IMG/VR virus record: IMGVR_UViG_2541047698_000010
DNA: 15,255 bases
Reading direction: 5' to 3' (one strand)
Source: a virus
Taxonomy: Duplodnaviria > Heunggongvirae > Uroviricota > Caudoviricetes
Below, one piece after another: positions 3,603-12,253 of the stretch. Made by a program: the position numbers and the translations under genes. A model generated the notes under the pieces. The model saw only the letters and a list, made by a program, of their open reading frames with translations, did no database searches and was not told where the DNA came from. The stretch's first letter is position 1. Each line of letters starts with the position of its first letter.

Positions 3603-3965
3603 TTAACGACCTGCTGCGCGGAGTTTTCCGTCAGGTTCACCGGCAAGAGTCAGTAATTGTCCCTGGTCTTCCTGCAGAATAGTCAGGCGACCACCGCGAT
3701 TGACATACATCGGCGTTTCGGTGGTGTCTTCTTCGGAAATTTTCCCGCGGTTAGTTGGGCGAACATATGAGAGTTTGTGTTTGATTTTCACACGGTTCTC
3801 ATCAAACGGTTCGATTTCCAGATTGAGTGAGACCTTCCCTTTGGTTTTCGTGTTCATCACACCGGAAGCGACCTCACTGAGAACTGCGCCGATTTTGGTT
3901 TCAAATACGCCGCCGTCCAGCTCCCCGATAAATGCCTGCACATCAGTACTGCGTTCGCTAGCCAT
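3603..3965 (-). CDS. yfdP: Hypothetical early protein (YfdP-like, 120 aa)
   Basis: Start chosen at MASERSTDVQ (ATG 3965) with a GAGGAG Shine-Dalgarno. The ORF-track N-terminal extension into the GC-rich region is Arg/Cys/Gly-rich and looks non-coding. Confidence 0.6.
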   Translation of the reverse strand: MASERSTDVQAFIGELDGGVFETKIGAVLSEVASGVMNTKTKGKVSLNLEIEPFDENRVKIKHKLSYVRPTNRGKISEEDTTETPMYVNRGGRLTILQEDQGQLLTLAGEPDGKLRAAGR

Positions 3966-4014
3966 TTTGCTGCTCCTCATCATATCGACCCTGCAAGGTC
4001 GGTTGGTTTCTCCA

Positions 4015-4101
4015 CAAAACAGAGAAGAACACCTGCGGTGGCAGCCGCCCGGATGGATTGGGTTATGAGCCCGTCGTCCGGTGATGCTCTTCTCTGTTTT
4101 G
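4015..4101. repeat. Perfect inverted repeat: 14-bp arms (4015-4028 / 4088-4101) around a 59-nt GC-rich loop
   Basis: CAAAACAGAGAAGA at 4015-4028 is the exact reverse complement of 4088-4101. An inner CACC/GGTG pair (4030-4033 / 4080-4083) extends the stem. Confidence 0.7.
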
Positions 4102-4102
4102 C

Positions 4103-4148
4103 AAAAAAGGACGGTACCAGCCGGAAGCAAGGGTACAAACTGGTACCG
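4103..4148 (-). terminator. Candidate intrinsic terminator on the leftward transcript (tL-like), about 140 nt upstream of yfdP
   Basis: 9-bp perfect stem CGGTACCAG (4112-4120) / CTGGTACCG (4140-4148) with a 19-nt loop. On the minus strand it is followed by UCCUUUUUUGC (plus A-run 4103-4108). Confidence 0.5.
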
Positions 4149-4149
4149 C

Positions 4150-4367
4150 CAGGACTACACACAGCATAAAGTTGTGGTGCCGGGTGCCTCCCGGTGCCTG
4201 GCGAAGGTTGCACACCAGGCGGGTGGGTATCCACAGAAGGTCGACTGTCAGCCTCAACCTTAACCCGCGTGCGCTGAGCCGCATTCACCACAACGCTAAG
4301 GATTCTCTCTGGTTGAAAATACTTAGCTGTTATGTGCCTGCTTTTAGCCACATCAGGCGAGGTGGAC
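4150..4367. other. GC-rich, highly structured non-coding block (candidate cis-acting RNA element or ncRNA)
   Basis: GC content clearly above the flanks. Several nested inverted repeats (GCCTGG/CCAGGC at about 4197-4220; AAGGTTG/CAACCTT at 4204-4210 / 4255-4261; GTGG/CCAC at 4223-4234). The ORFs here are Arg/Pro/Gly-rich with no Shine-Dalgarno. Confidence 0.35.
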
Positions 4368-4435
4368 CTGGTTATTCCCCAACAACAAGGATTCGGTTAA
4401 TCTGGATATCCCCAACAACAATAAGAGTATTCAAT
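4368..4435 (+). repeat. Two tandem 34-bp direct repeats (core CTGG-TAT-CCCCAACAACAA) abutting the start of the plus-strand gene
   Basis: 4368-4401 ctggttattccccaacaacaaggattcggttaat and 4402-4435 ctggatatccccaacaacaataagagtattcaat share a 12-nt identical core. Confidence 0.65.
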
Positions 4436-4459
4436 GTGATCGCTGAATTAACGGCAGCA

Positions 4460-4951
4460 ATGACGGCTATTCGTGAAACAGCCCAGATTGCAAAACTAAT
4501 GAACGAGGCAAAAACTCAAGCTGAAGTAAATGCGGCTATTGGTGAGCTGAACTCAAAGCTTGCGTCTATTCAGCGCGAATGCGTGTCTCTCGTTGAACTG
4601 GTGGGCTCTTATCAAGAAATAAATGCTTCTCTCAAAGCTAAAATTGCAGAATTCGAAAACTTTGAGGCTCAGACGGAAGGCTATATCCTTAACCAACTTG
4701 AGTCGGGTACTTTTGTATACTCGAAGGAGGTAATCGTGAACGGTGGCAGCATAACCATGCATCTTTGCCCAAAATGTTTTGGACAAAAGATAGTATCGAT
4801 ACTTCAACCATTCCCGGTTAGCGAAGATGAGCTTTTTCATAAAAGCAGGTGCCTCCACTGTGAAAATAAGTTTCTGATGAATAAAAATCCGGATTACGTA
4901 TCGCCTCCATCCATTGAGGAGTTGTCCAGAAAACTTAACGGCAATCTGTAG
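4460..4951 (+). CDS. Hypothetical coiled-coil / C4 zinc-ribbon protein (about 163 aa), convergent with cI and antisense to the pL operon
   Basis: N-terminal 75 aa are Ala/Glu/Lys/Leu-rich with heptad-like periodicity. C-terminus has CPKC-x24-CLHC. Own plus-strand terminator follows. Alternative GTG start at 4436. The ORF-track extension back to 4172 is GC-rich junk. Confidence 0.6.
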   Translation: MTAIRETAQIAKLMNEAKTQAEVNAAIGELNSKLASIQRECVSLVELVGSYQEINASLKAKIAEFENFEAQTEGYILNQLESGTFVYSKEVIVNGGSITMHLCPKCFGQKIVSILQPFPVSEDELFHKSRCLHCENKFLMNKNPDYVSPPSIEELSRKLNGNL

Positions 4952-4976
4952 ATTGCTACTGTTGTGGATATCCAGA

Positions 4977-4988
4977 TTGTTAAAGAGC
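4977..4988 (-). promoter_or_regulatory. boxA-like antitermination element (GCUCUUUAACAA) on the pL transcript
   Basis: Minus-strand sequence GCTCTTTAACAA is a 12/12 match to the rrn boxA core, about 100 nt downstream of the predicted pL start. A 6-bp hairpin (4941-4956) lies 20 nt further 3'. Confidence 0.4.
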
Positions 4989-4990
4989 TA

Positions 4991-5014
4991 AGCGTCCTGT
5001 AGGGCGCTTTTTTG
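4991..5014 (+). terminator. Intrinsic terminator of the plus-strand zinc-ribbon gene
   Basis: Stem AGCGTCC (4991-4997) / GGGCGCT (5002-5008) with one G-U pair, loop TGTA, followed by TTTTTTG. Confidence 0.6.
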
Positions 5015-5081
5015 TTGCTAATGAATCATCCTAGACTTCATATGCTCCAGGCGGCTACTTCGTGGGCGTCCTGCCTGTTTG

Positions 5082-5126
5082 TTGTTTCTCCTGGGTACAT
5101 TATGTATCCCAAAAGTACATTGTCAA
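5082..5126 (-). promoter_or_regulatory. Candidate pL promoter with OL operators
   Basis: Minus strand reads TTGACA (plus 5121-5126), a 16-17 nt spacer, then CATAAT (plus 5098-5104). Operator-type palindrome ATGTA-N9-TACAT at 5102-5120 and a degenerate copy TTGTT-N9-TACAT at 5082-5100, same geometry as the OR sites. Confidence 0.5.
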
Positions 5127-5130
5127 GTAT

Positions 5131-5153
5131 AAAAAAACCTGCCGAAGCAGGTT
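5131..5153 (-). terminator. Intrinsic terminator downstream of the repressor gene
   Basis: Stem ACCTGC (5137-5142) / GCAGGT (5147-5152), loop CGAA, followed on the minus strand by a 7-U tract (plus A-run 5131-5137). It lies 13 nt past the cI stop. Confidence 0.6.
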
Positions 5154-5165
5154 CATAAACATTGA

Positions 5166-5840
5166 TTAGGCTTTGATTTTGTATCTTCTTGGTTTTCCTG
5201 AGAAAATCACAGTTCCAATTATAGAGCAATTACCGTTGATCTTAATGTAAGGCTCAGGCCAGTTTGGGTTTAACGCTTTGAGATAACGCTGTGTCCCATC
5301 TTCTATCAACCTTTTGAAGGTGGTTTCACCTGTATCGTGCATCAATGCAATAACGTCGTCACCGTGGCAGGCAGGTACTTCAGGATCGACAAAAATCATG
5401 TCTCCCGGGCGGTACTCATCAATCATTGAATCACCTATCACCCGCAAGATATAAGTCATTTCCCCACAGGGTACAGGGCAGGGATACGTTTCTGCTGTGC
5501 TCAAATCAACCTCAGAATATCCAACTTCTTTCCATGCTCCGGCCTGTACCCATGATATGACAGGGACTAATGTGATTTGTTTATTAGTGATTGAAACATC
5601 AGGTTTTTTTGTGATGTTCGTTGTCTGGTGTTCTTGATCGAGCCATCCGACAGGCAGGTCGAAACATTTTTCGATGTGTCGTGCCATGCTGTCACCGATA
5701 TTTTTAGTAGCACCATCTCCCATAAACCTGCTGGTCTGGGTTGGCTCGCGATCAATCATAGTGGCAAAGGAAGAATTCCCGCCAACACCATCTCTCAGTT
5801 TTCTGGCGTTAGACCGCCGGATGTCATGGATTGTTTTCAT
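5166..5840 (-). CDS. cI: cI-like prophage repressor (N-terminal HTH, C-terminal S24 LexA-type autopeptidase domain)
   Basis: 224 aa. C-terminal region has the S24 serine (..VIGDSM..) and a downstream lysine (..TFKRL..). Divergent from the cro-like gene, with palindromic operators between them. Confidence 0.9.
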   Translation of the reverse strand: MKTIHDIRRSNARKLRDGVGGNSSFATMIDREPTQTSRFMGDGATKNIGDSMARHIEKCFDLPVGWLDQEHQTTNITKKPDVSITNKQITLVPVISWVQAGAWKEVGYSEVDLSTAETYPCPVPCGEMTYILRVIGDSMIDEYRPGDMIFVDPEVPACHGDDVIALMHDTGETTFKRLIEDGTQRYLKALNPNWPEPYIKINGNCSIIGTVIFSGKPRRYKIKA

Positions 5841-5846
5841 AACGAA

Positions 5847-5925
5847 ATTAAAACCCTTGTACCGTTAAGGTACAAGTATCTTGAAGGTTCATTTCAATCA
5901 TGTAATATGTATACCGGAGGTACAT
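5847..5925. promoter_or_regulatory. Divergent pRM / pR promoters with OR operators
   Basis: OR1 TTGTA-N9-TACAA at 5857-5875 (perfect palindrome CTTGTACCGTTAAGGTACAAG). OR2 ATGTA-N9-TACAT at 5907-5925. pR is TTGAAG (5881-5886), 16 nt spacer, TAATAT (5903-5908). Candidate pRM on the minus strand (TTGTAC / TTTAAT) would start at or next to the cI ATG. Confidence 0.55.
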
Positions 5926-5930
5926 ATTGT

Positions 5931-6131
5931 ATGAAAGCGTATTGGGACTCTTTAACCAAAGAACAGCAGGGCGAGTTGGCCGGAAAAGTTGGCTCAACAC
6001 CTGGCTACTTACGGCTGGTTTTCAATGGCTATAAAAAAGCCAGTTTTGTGCTGGCTAAAAAACTTGAGCAATGCACGTCAGGTGCAATTACGAAATCTGA
6101 CTTAAGACCGGATATCTATCCGAAAGATTAG
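5931..6131 (+). CDS. cro: Cro-like HTH regulator (66 aa)
   Basis: ATG at 5931 with a GGAGG Shine-Dalgarno 10 nt upstream. Small basic protein, first gene of the rightward operon. The ORF-track start at 5628 is an upstream extension across the operator region. Confidence 0.8.
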   Translation: MKAYWDSLTKEQQGELAGKVGSTPGYLRLVFNGYKKASFVLAKKLEQCTSGAITKSDLRPDIYPKD

Positions 6132-6162
6132 CAGAACACTTTCAATTTTTAACCACAGAACG

Positions 6163-6732
6163 ATGAGGCTAATCGTGGGTAAGCATCACTGGAAAATAGA
6201 AAAACAGCCTGAGTGGTACGTGAAAGCTGTCAGAAAAACTATCGCGGCGTTGCCGAGTGGTTACGCTGAAGCGGCTGACTGGCTCGATGTAACAGAAAAC
6301 GCTTTATTCAACCGCCTTCGTGCAGATGGCGATCAGATTTTCCCGCTGGGATGGGCAATGGTTTTACAGCGTGCTGGTGGCACTCATTTCATTGCTGATG
6401 CTGTGGCGCAGTCTGCAAATGGCGTCTTTGTGTCTCTTCCTGACGTCGAGGATGTGGACAACGCCGATATTAACCAGCGTCTGCTGGAAGTCATTGAACA
6501 GATCGGCAGTTATTCAAAACAGATTCGTTCAGCAATCGAAGACGGTGTAGTGGAACCGCATGAGAAGACAGCAATTAACGACGAGCTGTATCTCTCAATT
6601 TCGAAGCTGCAGGAGCATGCAGCACTTGTCTACAAAATTTTTTGCATTTCAGAAAGTAATGACGCCCGCGAGTGTGCAGCTCCGGGCGTCGTGGCGTCGA
6701 TTGCTTCTGGTTGTGGAGAAACTAACGCATGA
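6163..6732 (+). CDS. CII-like / YdaT-family regulatory protein (tentative)
   Basis: 189-aa ORF directly after cro, in the position of cII. Family assignment is from memory of YdaT/CP76-type proteins and is not confirmed. A GTG at 6175 is an alternative start. Confidence 0.45.
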
Positions 6733-7076: not shown

Positions 7077-8018
7077 ATGAGCACTAAATTAACCGGCTAT
7101 GTATGGGATGGTTGCGCAGCGTCAGGCATGAAATTATCCAGCGTGGCAATTATGGCCCGCCTGGCTGATTTCAGTAATGACGAAGGTGTGTGCTGGCCAT
7201 CGATTGAAACCATTGCCCGCCAGATTGGCGCGGGGATGAGTACAGTCAGAACGGCTATCGCACGGCTGGAAGCAGAAGGCTGGTTAACGCGTAAGGCGCG
7301 TCGCCAGGGTAACCGCAATGCGTCGAATGTTTATCAGCTTAACGTTGCGAAGCTTCAGGCTGCGGCATTTTCTCAACTGTCAGATTCTGACCCGTCAAAA
7401 TCTGACGCATCAAAATCTGACCCGTCAAAATTTGATGCGTCGAAATCTGGCAAAAAAGCGGGTTTTCACCCGTCAGAATCTGGCGGGGATCCGTCAGTAA
7501 AATCAAAACATGATCCGTCAGATAAAAAACCTTCTCGTCCGGACGCTTCGCAACCGGACACGCAGACGGCTGAACAGGATTTTTTAACTCGCCATCCTGA
7601 TGCGGTTGTATTCAGCCCTAAAAAGCGCCAGTGGGGGACGCAGGATGATTTGACCTGCGCACAGTGGCTCTGGAAAAAAATCATCGCCCTGTACGAGCAG
7701 GCTGCCGAATGTGACGGCGAGGTGGTTCGTCCCAAAGAACCGAACTGGACAGCCTGGGCAAACGAAATTCGCCTGATGTGTGTGCAGGATGGTCGTACTC
7801 ACAAACAAATCTGCGAGATGTACAGCCGCGTCAGCCGCGATCCGTTCTGGTGCCGTAACGTGCTCAGCCCGTCGAAGCTGCGGGAAAAATGGGATGAGCT
7901 TTCCCTGCGCTTATCGCCGTCCGTAAGCACGTACACCGAAAAACGCGAAGACGCGTACTTCAAAGCCAGTTACGACAACGTGGACTACAGCCAGATCCCG
8001 GCAGGATTCAGGGGGTAA
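7077..8018 (+). CDS. Replication initiator, O-like (N-terminal winged-helix DNA-binding domain, repeat-encoded linker, C-terminal domain)
   Basis: 313 aa. N-terminus (..CWPSIETIARQIGAGMSTVRTAIARLEAEGWL..) is a replication-initiator winged helix. The central SDPSKSDASKSDPSKFDASKS linker is encoded by the iteron array. Confidence 0.75.
   Translation: MSTKLTGYVWDGCAASGMKLSSVAIMARLADFSNDEGVCWPSIETIARQIGAGMSTVRTAIARLEAEGWLTRKARRQGNRNASNVYQLNVAKLQAAAFSQLSDSDPSKSDASKSDPSKFDASKSGKKAGFHPSESGGDPSVKSKHDPSDKKPSRPDASQPDTQTAEQDFLTRHPDAVVFSPKKRQWGTQDDLTCAQWLWKKIIALYEQAAECDGEVVRPKEPNWTAWANEIRLMCVQDGRTHKQICEMYSRVSRDPFWCRNVLSPSKLREKWDELSLRLSPSVSTYTEKREDAYFKASYDNVDYSQIPAGFRG
7386..7450. repeat. Iteron-like tandem repeats (about 15-bp period, four to five copies) inside the O-like gene; candidate origin of replication
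   Basis: tctgacccgtcaaaa / tctgacgcatcaaaa / tctgacccgtcaaaa / tttgatgcgtcgaaa at 7386-7445. Further CCGTCAG copies and an A-rich stretch extend to about 7530. Confidence 0.55.
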
Positions 8019-11852: not shown

Positions 11853-11869
11853 TTTTGTGGAGAAAGTTA

Positions 11870-12253
11870 ATGCGTGATATTCAGATGGTTCTTGAACGTT
11901 GGGGAGCGTGGGCGGCTAATAATCATGAAGATGTGACCTGGTCGTCCATTGCCGCCGGTTTTAAGGGATTAATTCCTTCAAAAGTAAAATCTCGCCCGCA
12001 ATGTTGTGACGATGACGCGATGATCATTTGCGGGTGCATGGCCCGTCTGAAAAAGAACAACAGCGATTTACACGATTTATTAGTAGATTATTATGTATGT
12101 GGTATGACATTCATGTCACTGGCAAGTAAGCATTGCTGCTCGGATGGTTATATCGGGAAAAGGTTACAGAAGGCTGAGGGCATAATTGAAGGGATGTTAA
12201 TGGCATTAGATATCCGGTTAGATATGGATATCGTTGCTAATAATTCTAATTGA
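11870..12253 (+). CDS. Q: Late-gene antiterminator Q (phage 82 / DLP12 QuuD type)
   Basis: 127 aa from the ATG at 11870 with GGAGAAA upstream. [26 protein letters not shown]... is recalled as 82-type Q. The ORF-track TTG at 11855 is unlikely. Confidence 0.8.

Follow-up and report, generated by a model that had tools for sequence, protein, structure and literature searches.

The analysed stretch (hereafter the window) is a 15,255-nucleotide (nt), or 15.3-kb, piece of Caudoviricetes DNA (IMG/VR record IMGVR_UViG_2541047698_000010) which represents the integrase-to-lysis early region of an SfV/e14-like lambdoid prophage. Its subject here is a boxA element on the early-left (pL) transcript of a prophage that carries no N gene, together with the structured leader RNA, the long-range helix and the backwards-facing cassette gene that surround it. 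On the left the minus-strand genes int and yfdT-yfdP come first, followed by a plus-strand cassette gene and then by the minus-strand cI-type repressor gene. Rightwards lie cro (5931-6131), a CII-like gene, O, Q, a porin gene on the opposite strand and the lysis genes. Because this order runs from int to lysis, the whole early region is covered by the window. The part from 3900 to 6200 is 99.9% identical to Escherichia phage PhiR49_1; it is also close to SfIV and SfV, two phages of Shigella, and to the e14 immunity region (ymfK, ymfT, ymfL).

The early-left leader of the prophage

The features of the early-left region are as follows, in the order in which pL transcription would meet them.

5099-5126, minus strand: predicted pL promoter (promoter scan: TTGACA, 16 nt, CATAAT; 11/12).
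5017-5086, minus strand: conserved structured 5' leader RNA (alignment, covariation and covariance model).
4990-5009, plus strand: hairpin directly upstream of boxA in the pL sense, AAGCGTCCTGTAGGGCGCTT and then TTTTTG (terminator scan).
4977-4988, minus strand: boxA, GCUCUUUAACAA, proposed NusB/NusE(S10) site on the pL transcript (consensus match, rrnB identity and conservation).
4960-4978, minus strand: 5' arm of a long-range helix, AAUCUGGAUAUCCACAACA, beginning at the last two boxA bases (inverted repeat I1).
4941-4956, minus strand: 6-bp hairpin of the first-pass annotation, GCAATC-TACA-GATTGC, 20 nt downstream of boxA (terminator and hairpin scan).
4436-4951, plus strand: converging cassette gene of about 171 amino acids, antisense to pL (PHROG 1244 at residues 77-227 of the annotated open reading frame (ORF); codon-position substitutions).
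4399-4417, minus strand: 3' arm of the long-range helix, UGUUGGGGAUAUCCAGAUU on the pL RNA (inverted repeat I1, direct repeat D1).
4101-4324, minus strand: STnc100/PasD-like structured RNA between the cassette and yfdP (Rfam RF02076; fold z-score -3.35).
3603-3983, minus strand: yfdP, the first translated early-left gene (PhiR49_1 annotation; PHROG 204).

The early-left control region begins where the repressor gene ends. The position of pL is common to SfV, SfIV and e14, a promoter is annotated there in phage Ayreon, and TGTAC/GTACA operator-like half sites lie on both sides of it. The pL transcript is predicted to start near 5092, which places yfdP about 1.1 kb downstream.

An rrn-type boxA in a prophage without N

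The 12-mer GCTCTTTAACAA at 4977-4988 (minus strand) matches boxA with 0 mismatches and is, letter for letter, the boxA of the Escherichia coli K-12 rrnB leader (L355:367-378), as the first-pass annotation had stated. Counted from the predicted pL start, it is about 105 nt into the transcript (both promoter and start being predictions), which also bears out the earlier assignment of boxA to this transcript. The gamma-proteobacterial boxA consensus is GYTCTTTAANA (10.1101/091223). Its sole match in the window is GCTCTTTAACA at 4978-4988 (minus strand), including the C at position 4; about 0.09 matches per window are expected, and at least one was found in 18 of 200 shuffles. The exact 12-mer would be expected by arithmetic about 0.002 times in 2 x 15255 positions. 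In K-12, the rrnB leader boxA is itself preceded by a boxB hairpin, and the 16S-23S spacer carries GCTCTTTAAAAA. In the window, boxA sits between the stop codon (4949-4951) of the plus-strand cassette gene and the intrinsic terminator of that gene.

No N homologue was found in Pfam and PHROG scans of the early genes, in which the families recognised were CII-like, PerC-like, LexA-like, KilA-N, DUF968 and Q. When all ORFs of at least 30 codons were scanned for a small Arg-rich N-like protein, just antisense or out-of-frame ORFs came up, and the early region thus yielded no credible candidate. The earlier statement that no N-like ORF is present therefore holds for the early region. In 2025 a related phage that shares the yfdP-yfdQ-yfbR genes was likewise reported to have no N, and a put-like mechanism was offered as a guess (PMC12315714). 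N-like proteins can, on the other hand, be unrecognisable and yet stand in the right operon, as does Gp17 of mEp021 (PMC11893012). One candidate for such a first gene, a minus-strand ORF of 101 amino acids (4553-4858), was rejected: substitutions peak at its codon position 1, and what looks like its ribosome-binding site consists of the CxxC codons of the plus-strand gene in reverse complement.

The first-pass annotation had further described a 6-bp hairpin after boxA and a weaker boxA copy on the early-right (pR) transcript, and had proposed antitermination of both early operons. The hairpin at 4941-4956 does exist, 20 nt downstream of boxA, but it is cassette-specific coding sequence and not a conserved partner of boxA. 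Its loop holds the stop codon of the converging gene, it is missing in SfIV, Kp4882-1 and other cassette types, and it does not form in the minimum free energy (MFE) fold. No boxB-like hairpin is conserved after boxA among the compared relatives, and a lambda-type nut site is ruled out by this lack together with that of N. The 10/12 match on the pR side, ACTCTTTAACCA at 5947-5958 (plus strand), also exists, but it occurs at chance level: 1.46 matches with at most two mismatches are expected per window, and 86 of 200 shuffles contain two or more. It breaks the consensus at positions 1 and 11 and lies within cro codons 6-9 (D-S-L-T-K). We found no evidence that it is more than chance, and consensus and mismatch scans of the window gave no second site on the pR transcript that could be a nutR equivalent. 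The pR half of the earlier proposal is thus left without support.

Recurrence and conservation of boxA

To avoid circularity, boxA was counted from the leader-RNA anchor and not from boxA itself, over 100 distinct downstream contexts. The compared loci share ancestry, and gene calls in loci other than the window are crude. Within 300 nt downstream of the leader, GCTCTTTAA is present in the sense orientation in 21 of the 100 contexts and in the antisense orientation in 1, while about 0.1 per strand would be expected from the 9-mer frequency (arithmetic). All but one of the 21 sense copies lie 3-44 nt past the leader.

Among the 28 distinct contexts that bear the adjoining hairpin, GYTCTTTAANA is kept in 27. 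Variable in them are the loop of the hairpin, the base that precedes boxA (A, C or U), position 10 of the consensus (C or A), everything beyond position 17 and the helix arms. Variation within boxA is thereby limited to positions that the consensus leaves free. The variant GCTCTTTAAAAA found in relatives is the rrnB spacer boxA mentioned above.

The element also recurs in independent flanks. In SfIV the same hairpin and boxA are followed by a different cassette, and in Klebsiella phage Kp4882-1 they follow a different repressor and leader. In L308 (Kluyvera), L339, L342 and L261 (Photorhabdus), boxA comes after the leader without the hairpin and amid unrelated flanks; in L022 and L112 it lies about 50 nt past a different pL with no leader RNA. 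SfV and e14 share the pL leader and have no boxA. A 17-mer scan of viral contigs gave more than 120 loci, most of them pL leaders with differing immunity regions, and a scan of genome contigs with a 17-base degenerate pattern gave at least 120 matches, many of which, outside Enterobacterales, look like chance. The hairpin and boxA module is found, never annotated, in 796 of 5426 complete E. coli genomes (15%), and the earlier view that the arrangement would be unusual for a lambdoid phage has to be given up. From its sequence record, boxA is a real, conserved and previously unannotated signal of many N-less prophages.

By a crude gene call, the longest ORF just downstream is antisense in 19 of the 21 boxA-positive contexts, compared with 39 of 75 contexts (p = 0.0019).

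A predicted long-range helix around the cassette

The two arms (4960-4978 and 4399-4417) are 19 nt long, 95% complementary and 542 nt apart, and they enclose the whole plus-strand cassette gene. The resulting 19-bp helix appears in both the MFE and the centroid folds of 4385-5000 (minus strand). At 21 distinct loci that carry different cassettes, the best partner of the 30 nt following boxA lies 450-720 nt downstream (mean z -4.0), and the pairing beats all 30 shuffles at 17 of these loci. The arms covary between cassettes (GGAUGACU/AGUCAUCC, CUUAG/CAAG, AACGAC/GUCGUU); their core (ATCTGGATATCC) is conserved in sequence and not solely in complementarity. Ten or more unrelated cassettes are found inside the frame made of hairpin, boxA and arm.

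Two direct copies of TCCCCAACAACAA were noted at 4366-4388 and 4399-4421 (plus strand), each inside CTGG(A/T)TAT(C/T)CCCAACAACAA. The 3' arm is therefore duplicated, which allows alternative pairing; SfIV and Kp4882-1 have the same duplication.

A comparable geometry is known from rRNA operons. There the leader strand that comes after boxA belongs to a helix of 17 bp or more, which closes around 16S or 23S, and anchoring of boxA through NusB has been proposed to hold this leader strand at the RNA exit until the trailer emerges (PMC10250234). The helix of the prophage may be an RNase III site.

The converging cassette gene and its terminator

Over ten homologues, substitutions number 264, 124 and 445 at plus-strand codon positions 1, 2 and 3. 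Because they peak at position 3, the plus-strand gene is real, and the pL transcript consequently runs antisense across it. A tblastn search on both strands of the cassette gave about 50% conservation in either frame. The probable start is GTG at 4436 or ATG at 4460. The protein consists of a coiled coil and a CPKC...CLHC zinc ribbon, and no Pfam, PADLOC or NCBIfam family scored above cut-off. The annotated 242-residue ORF of PhiR49_1 (4223-4951, plus strand) begins too far upstream, its first 70 codons being the STnc100-like element read in reverse. The protein of about 171 residues with PHROG 1244 is a frequent cassette in this slot.

Each of the 20 distinct variants of the hairpin at 4990-5009 folds more stably on the plus strand (-9.5 versus -5.2 kcal/mol), since that strand forms a G.U pair where the boxA strand has a constant C.A mismatch. 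This stability bias identifies the hairpin as the intrinsic terminator of the converging gene.

The conserved 5' leader RNA

In the leader RNA (5017-5086), helix P1 is formed by 5078-5083 and 5020-5025 and helix P2 by 5047-5051 and 5030-5034. There is a near-invariant core, GGCAGGACGCCCACGAAGUAGCC, whose 26 nt, like the 12-nt loop of P2, show little change across Escherichia, Yersinia, Serratia, Pantoea, Xenorhabdus and Photorhabdus. P1 and P2 are 92.8% paired when 93 distinct sequences are aligned without gaps; slid controls reach 19-44%. Cells changed on both sides of a pair number 208 versus 55.7 in shuffles, and none of 500 shuffles reaches 208. RNAalifold recovers the same two helices. 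The covariance model built from them (R1) gives 77.8 bits at 5017-5086, its sole match in the window, with none on the pR side.

The leader RNA is present in 49 sequenced phages, SfV, SfII, SfIV, ST64B, phiNP, ZF40 and mEp237 among them, and in e14 of E. coli K-12 (NC_000913 1202109-1202179), in all cases unannotated. No Rfam family covered it when the window and eight other loci were scanned. Its identity as a put RNA is ruled out: R1 does not match putL or putR of HK022 or the annotated putL-like RNA of HK639, and a put profile run on the window with nhmmer found nothing (best E-value 1.6). A 7-codon ORF in the leader loop was also dismissed, its AUG being ACG or AAG in many relatives.

Several side observations concern this leader. 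Phage Ayreon (L003, 3300-3690) has the same repressor and pL with no leader RNA or boxA and with a different version of the STnc100-like RNA; the leader is therefore an exchangeable module. A second conserved leader motif, AACGUUCCGC-hairpin-GCG..AAGGCA, lies downstream of the leader RNA in prophages that are Gifsy-like or of the mEp237 type (L353, which is mEp237, at about 2575-2615; L007 at about 3655-3695; many loci numbered L1xx) and precedes the hairpin and boxA in leaders of the Kp4882-1 type. The leader RNA is also present in mEp237 (L353) and mEp460 (H109), two phages of the Kameyama mEp collection that have been described as Nus-dependent coliphages. In the stretch of mEp237 that was read, no N gene is annotated downstream of the leader, and boxA is absent within 200 nt of it.

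The STnc100-like RNA and the surrounding genes

The match to RF02076 at 4101-4324 is full-length; it scores 40.3 bits (E = 6.5e-06), below the gathering score of 47. The element ends in a strong intrinsic terminator at 4103-4148, and it may have a -10 of its own (CATAAC) just upstream of 4324. It is kept in SfV, SfIV, e14 and Kp4882-1 and absent after the arms at other boxA loci. A role of the long-range helix in releasing this RNA is not general, given those boxA loci without such an RNA after the arms, and was rejected.

Three further features complete the region.

5166-5840, minus strand: cI-type (YmfK/LexA-family) repressor gene (ORF list; cI in the PhiR49_1 annotation, ymfK in E. coli genomes).
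5135-5154, minus strand: intrinsic terminator of the repressor transcript (terminator scan: GAACCTGCTTCGGCAGGTTT and TTTTATAC).
11855-12253, plus strand: Q antiterminator gene (PF06530).

Between Q and the lysis genes stands a full-length OmpC/NmpC-type porin gene (PF00267; 12442-13524, minus strand), which is a typical lysogenic-conversion insert. An Rfam 'mir-5880' match at 7378-7452 (plus strand) is spurious: it falls on arrayed ATCTGAC..TCAAAA repeats within the O gene, and these repeats are most likely the origin iterons.

Proposed mechanism and its alternatives

On balance we lean towards the reading that the 12-mer functions as a boxA in the pL RNA of this N-less lambdoid prophage, and that host Nus factors would act through it without N and on pL alone. 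The conserved, strand-specific and positioned boxA makes this the best reading for pL, and of the host-only antitermination proposed earlier for both operons the pL part is accordingly the one we retain. A factor-independent contribution, also raised earlier, could come from the separate 5' leader RNA, which is unrelated to put. Nus factors block Rho without N at arrays of clustered regularly interspaced short palindromic repeats (CRISPR) (PMC7665894), and the rrn-type Nus complex acts mainly against Rho (PMC7665894; 10.1101/091223). Upon induction, RNA polymerase would start at pL (about 5092) and transcribe the structured leader (5086-5017), pass the back of the converging gene's terminator and then transcribe boxA. 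NusB and NusE(S10) would bind boxA and, with NusA, NusG and probably SuhB, remain on the polymerase, as on rRNA operons and CRISPR arrays. The first 1.1 kb or so of the transcript is untranslatable because it is antisense to the 171-residue cassette gene and then runs into a structured small-RNA-like element. This is why a Rho-resistant complex would be needed, and the Nus complex would make the polymerase Rho-resistant across that distance. Tethered at the polymerase, boxA would keep the 5' arm (4978-4960) near the RNA exit until the 3' arm (4417-4399) emerges; the 19-bp helix would then close and loop out the antisense cassette RNA, with cleavage by RNase III possible. No phage N would take part, the pR operon would have no such element, and the late genes would use Q. 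Nus binding, Rho resistance, formation of the helix in vivo and processing are what we infer from sequence and its conservation.

A number of points weigh against this reading. An rrn-type complex is not expected to defeat a strong intrinsic terminator such as 4103-4148, which the Nus complex would probably not overcome; passage beyond it may depend on the leader RNA or on partial read-through, or the pL transcripts may have their main role in ending there. By C/G composition, the untranslated pL stretch shows no pronounced Rho-loading signal (C-rich, G-poor). In the window, two G-to-A changes in the leader break two pairs of P1. About half of the leader-bearing loci, SfV and e14 included, have no boxA, so leader RNA and boxA are separable, and many boxA-less contexts also seem to carry antisense ORFs. 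Since the upstream hairpin is the opposite-strand terminator, its resemblance to the boxB-boxA order of rrn is superficial, and its stem is about as conserved as boxA in the 28 contexts. The arms were compared between strands by a test that is weak in both its forms: G.U counts are 66 versus 62, and by tally the pL-sense duplex is the more stable one at 16 of the 22 loci, the average difference being about 1.9 kcal/mol. These counts and energies do not separate pL RNA, plus-strand mRNA (pairing of its 5' and 3' ends) and DNA as the selected level. Finally, boxA is nearly always accompanied by the converging gene's terminator and the inverted repeat; because it travels with them, its conservation could reflect an inherited DNA cassette frame.

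That last possibility carries the most weight among the rivals, followed by a negative role of the suhB kind, an unrecognised phage cofactor and chance. If the frame is maintained at the level of DNA, the hairpin, the boxA-like 12-mer and the inverted repeat would be the borders of a recombination slot for antisense 'moron' cassettes, and the 12-mer would be kept by its place between a needed terminator and a repeat rather than by Nus binding. The same borders around so many unrelated cassettes, an arm core conserved as sequence, a hairpin serving the opposite strand and G.U counts that do not tell the strands apart are all as such a slot would have them. Yet boxA also follows pL leaders where neither hairpin nor arms are present and the flanks are unrelated (the Kluyvera and Photorhabdus loci and their two companions above), and it occurs in T7-like early operons (T7, phD2B) whose genes face in the sense direction. 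Its orientation relative to pL is strand-specific by 21 to 1, its variation is confined to consensus-free positions, and the arms diverge widely yet remain complementary, unlike sequence-specific recombination sites. We therefore regard the DNA-level explanation as unlikely, though it deserves to be kept in view.

Control could also be negative, in the style of the suhB leader, with boxA-bound Nus factors promoting Rho termination or blocking translation and so limiting leaky early-left expression. Such boxA-dependent repression is documented for suhB (10.1101/091223), and in SfIV-type loci a small ORF that has a strong ribosome-binding site comes 47 nt after boxA; but the window and most cassette types have no translated ORF after boxA, and a long untranslated RNA ahead is the setting in which boxA acts positively (rRNA operons, CRISPR arrays), which leaves this option quite improbable. 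We rate marginally lower still the idea that boxA belongs to the nut site of an unrecognised phage antiterminator, a protein unlike known N that binds a nearby RNA structure such as the 5' leader. The escape of Gp17 of mEp021 from recognition (PMC11893012) and several early genes without known function would allow for it, whereas neither early operon holds a small Arg-rich ORF and no boxB-like hairpin is conserved after boxA. The leader core, moreover, is near-invariant from Escherichia to Xenorhabdus and Yersinia across differing immunity regions and early genes, which argues for a host partner and not a phage one. A functionless chance match would be compatible with the window taken alone, in which 0.09 consensus matches are expected; recurrence, strand bias, fixed position and conservation over hundreds of loci refute it for practical purposes, and we give it next to no credence.

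Beyond the favoured role of boxA itself, a more ambitious scheme can be sketched, which we consider possible but doubtful. The leader, boxA and helix might together form a three-part N-free RNA device: a new class of leader RNA of about 63 nt that modifies the polymerase or its partners, an rrn-type boxA that loads Nus factors, and a leader-trailer-like helix, closed by the complex anchored at boxA, that loops out inserted antisense cassettes, with RNase III perhaps cutting them out.

Comparison with known systems

The prophage resembles the E. coli rrn operons in several respects. Its boxA is identical, the variant of its relatives is the rrn spacer boxA, no N is involved, a hairpin lies just upstream of boxA, and a helix of at least 17 bp, with its 5' strand just downstream of boxA, encloses a long RNA that is untranslated in the pL direction. 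It differs in that the helix encloses RNA antisense to a protein gene and not rRNA, that the arm begins at the end of boxA while the rrn leader strand begins 18-19 nt later, and that the upstream hairpin is a terminator of the opposite strand. With the lambda-type nut phages (lambda, P22, phage 21) it shares a boxA on the pL transcript shortly after the promoter and the layout of repressor, cro, cII-like gene, O, Q and lysis; unlike them, it has no N gene, no conserved boxB after boxA and no nutR equivalent. Like the put phages HK022 and HK639, it is an N-less lambdoid with a conserved structured RNA at the 5' end of the pL transcript; put RNAs are factor-independent antiterminators that work through the beta' zinc-binding domain of RNA polymerase. 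The leader of the prophage, however, is closed by P1 and further comprises a small hairpin and P2, whose loop measures 12 nt, and it has no copy on pR; boxA is not known from put phages.

A host-only boxA ahead of a long untranslated transcript is also found at CRISPR arrays, where it protects against Rho (PMC7665894); in the prophage, by contrast, it belongs to the early operon of a phage, where a bracketing helix and a 5' leader RNA accompany it. T7 (L351) carries CGCTCTTTAACAATCTGG at 812-829, after promoters A1-A3 and before gene 0.3, with 17 nt in common with the prophage module. The T7-like Lelliottia phage phD2B (L352) has three consensus boxA elements in its early operon, at 707, 990 and 1612. 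Downstream of each comes the 5' arm of a long-range stem with one or two early genes inside it; the stem measures 20-28 bp at the first two elements and is weaker at the third. This is an rrn-like layout in lytic phages. Both T7 and phD2B are likewise without N, and their boxA elements lie in early operons transcribed by the host polymerase; unlike the prophage, they are lytic podoviruses, and the enclosed genes face in the sense direction.

A literature search returned nothing relevant on boxA in N-less lambdoid phages or in T7, and no paper on what the T7 and phD2B elements do. Whereas boxA, Nus factors and leader-trailer helices are already known, we found no description in the literature of their N-free use in the early-left leader of a temperate lambdoid phage, or of the link with antisense cassettes and the new leader RNA.

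Significance

Many common enterobacterial prophages (SfV, SfII, SfIV, ST64B, phiNP, e14 and relatives) have no N, which raises the question of how their early operons escape termination. The locus described here provides cis elements that can be mutated, namely boxA, the two helix arms and the leader RNA, in a module present in 15% of complete E. coli genomes, with the leader in K-12 itself. If boxA works as proposed, N-free Nus control would extend from rRNA, suhB and CRISPR arrays to the early operons of temperate phages, and boxA with a bracketing helix would be a general means of carrying polymerase over untranslatable RNA. It would also explain how these prophages tolerate backwards-facing cassette genes right after pL. 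Should the three-part device prove true, it would be the long-missing early antitermination system of SfV-, ST64B-, Gifsy- and e14-type phages, and these phages would have copied the architecture of the rRNA operon.

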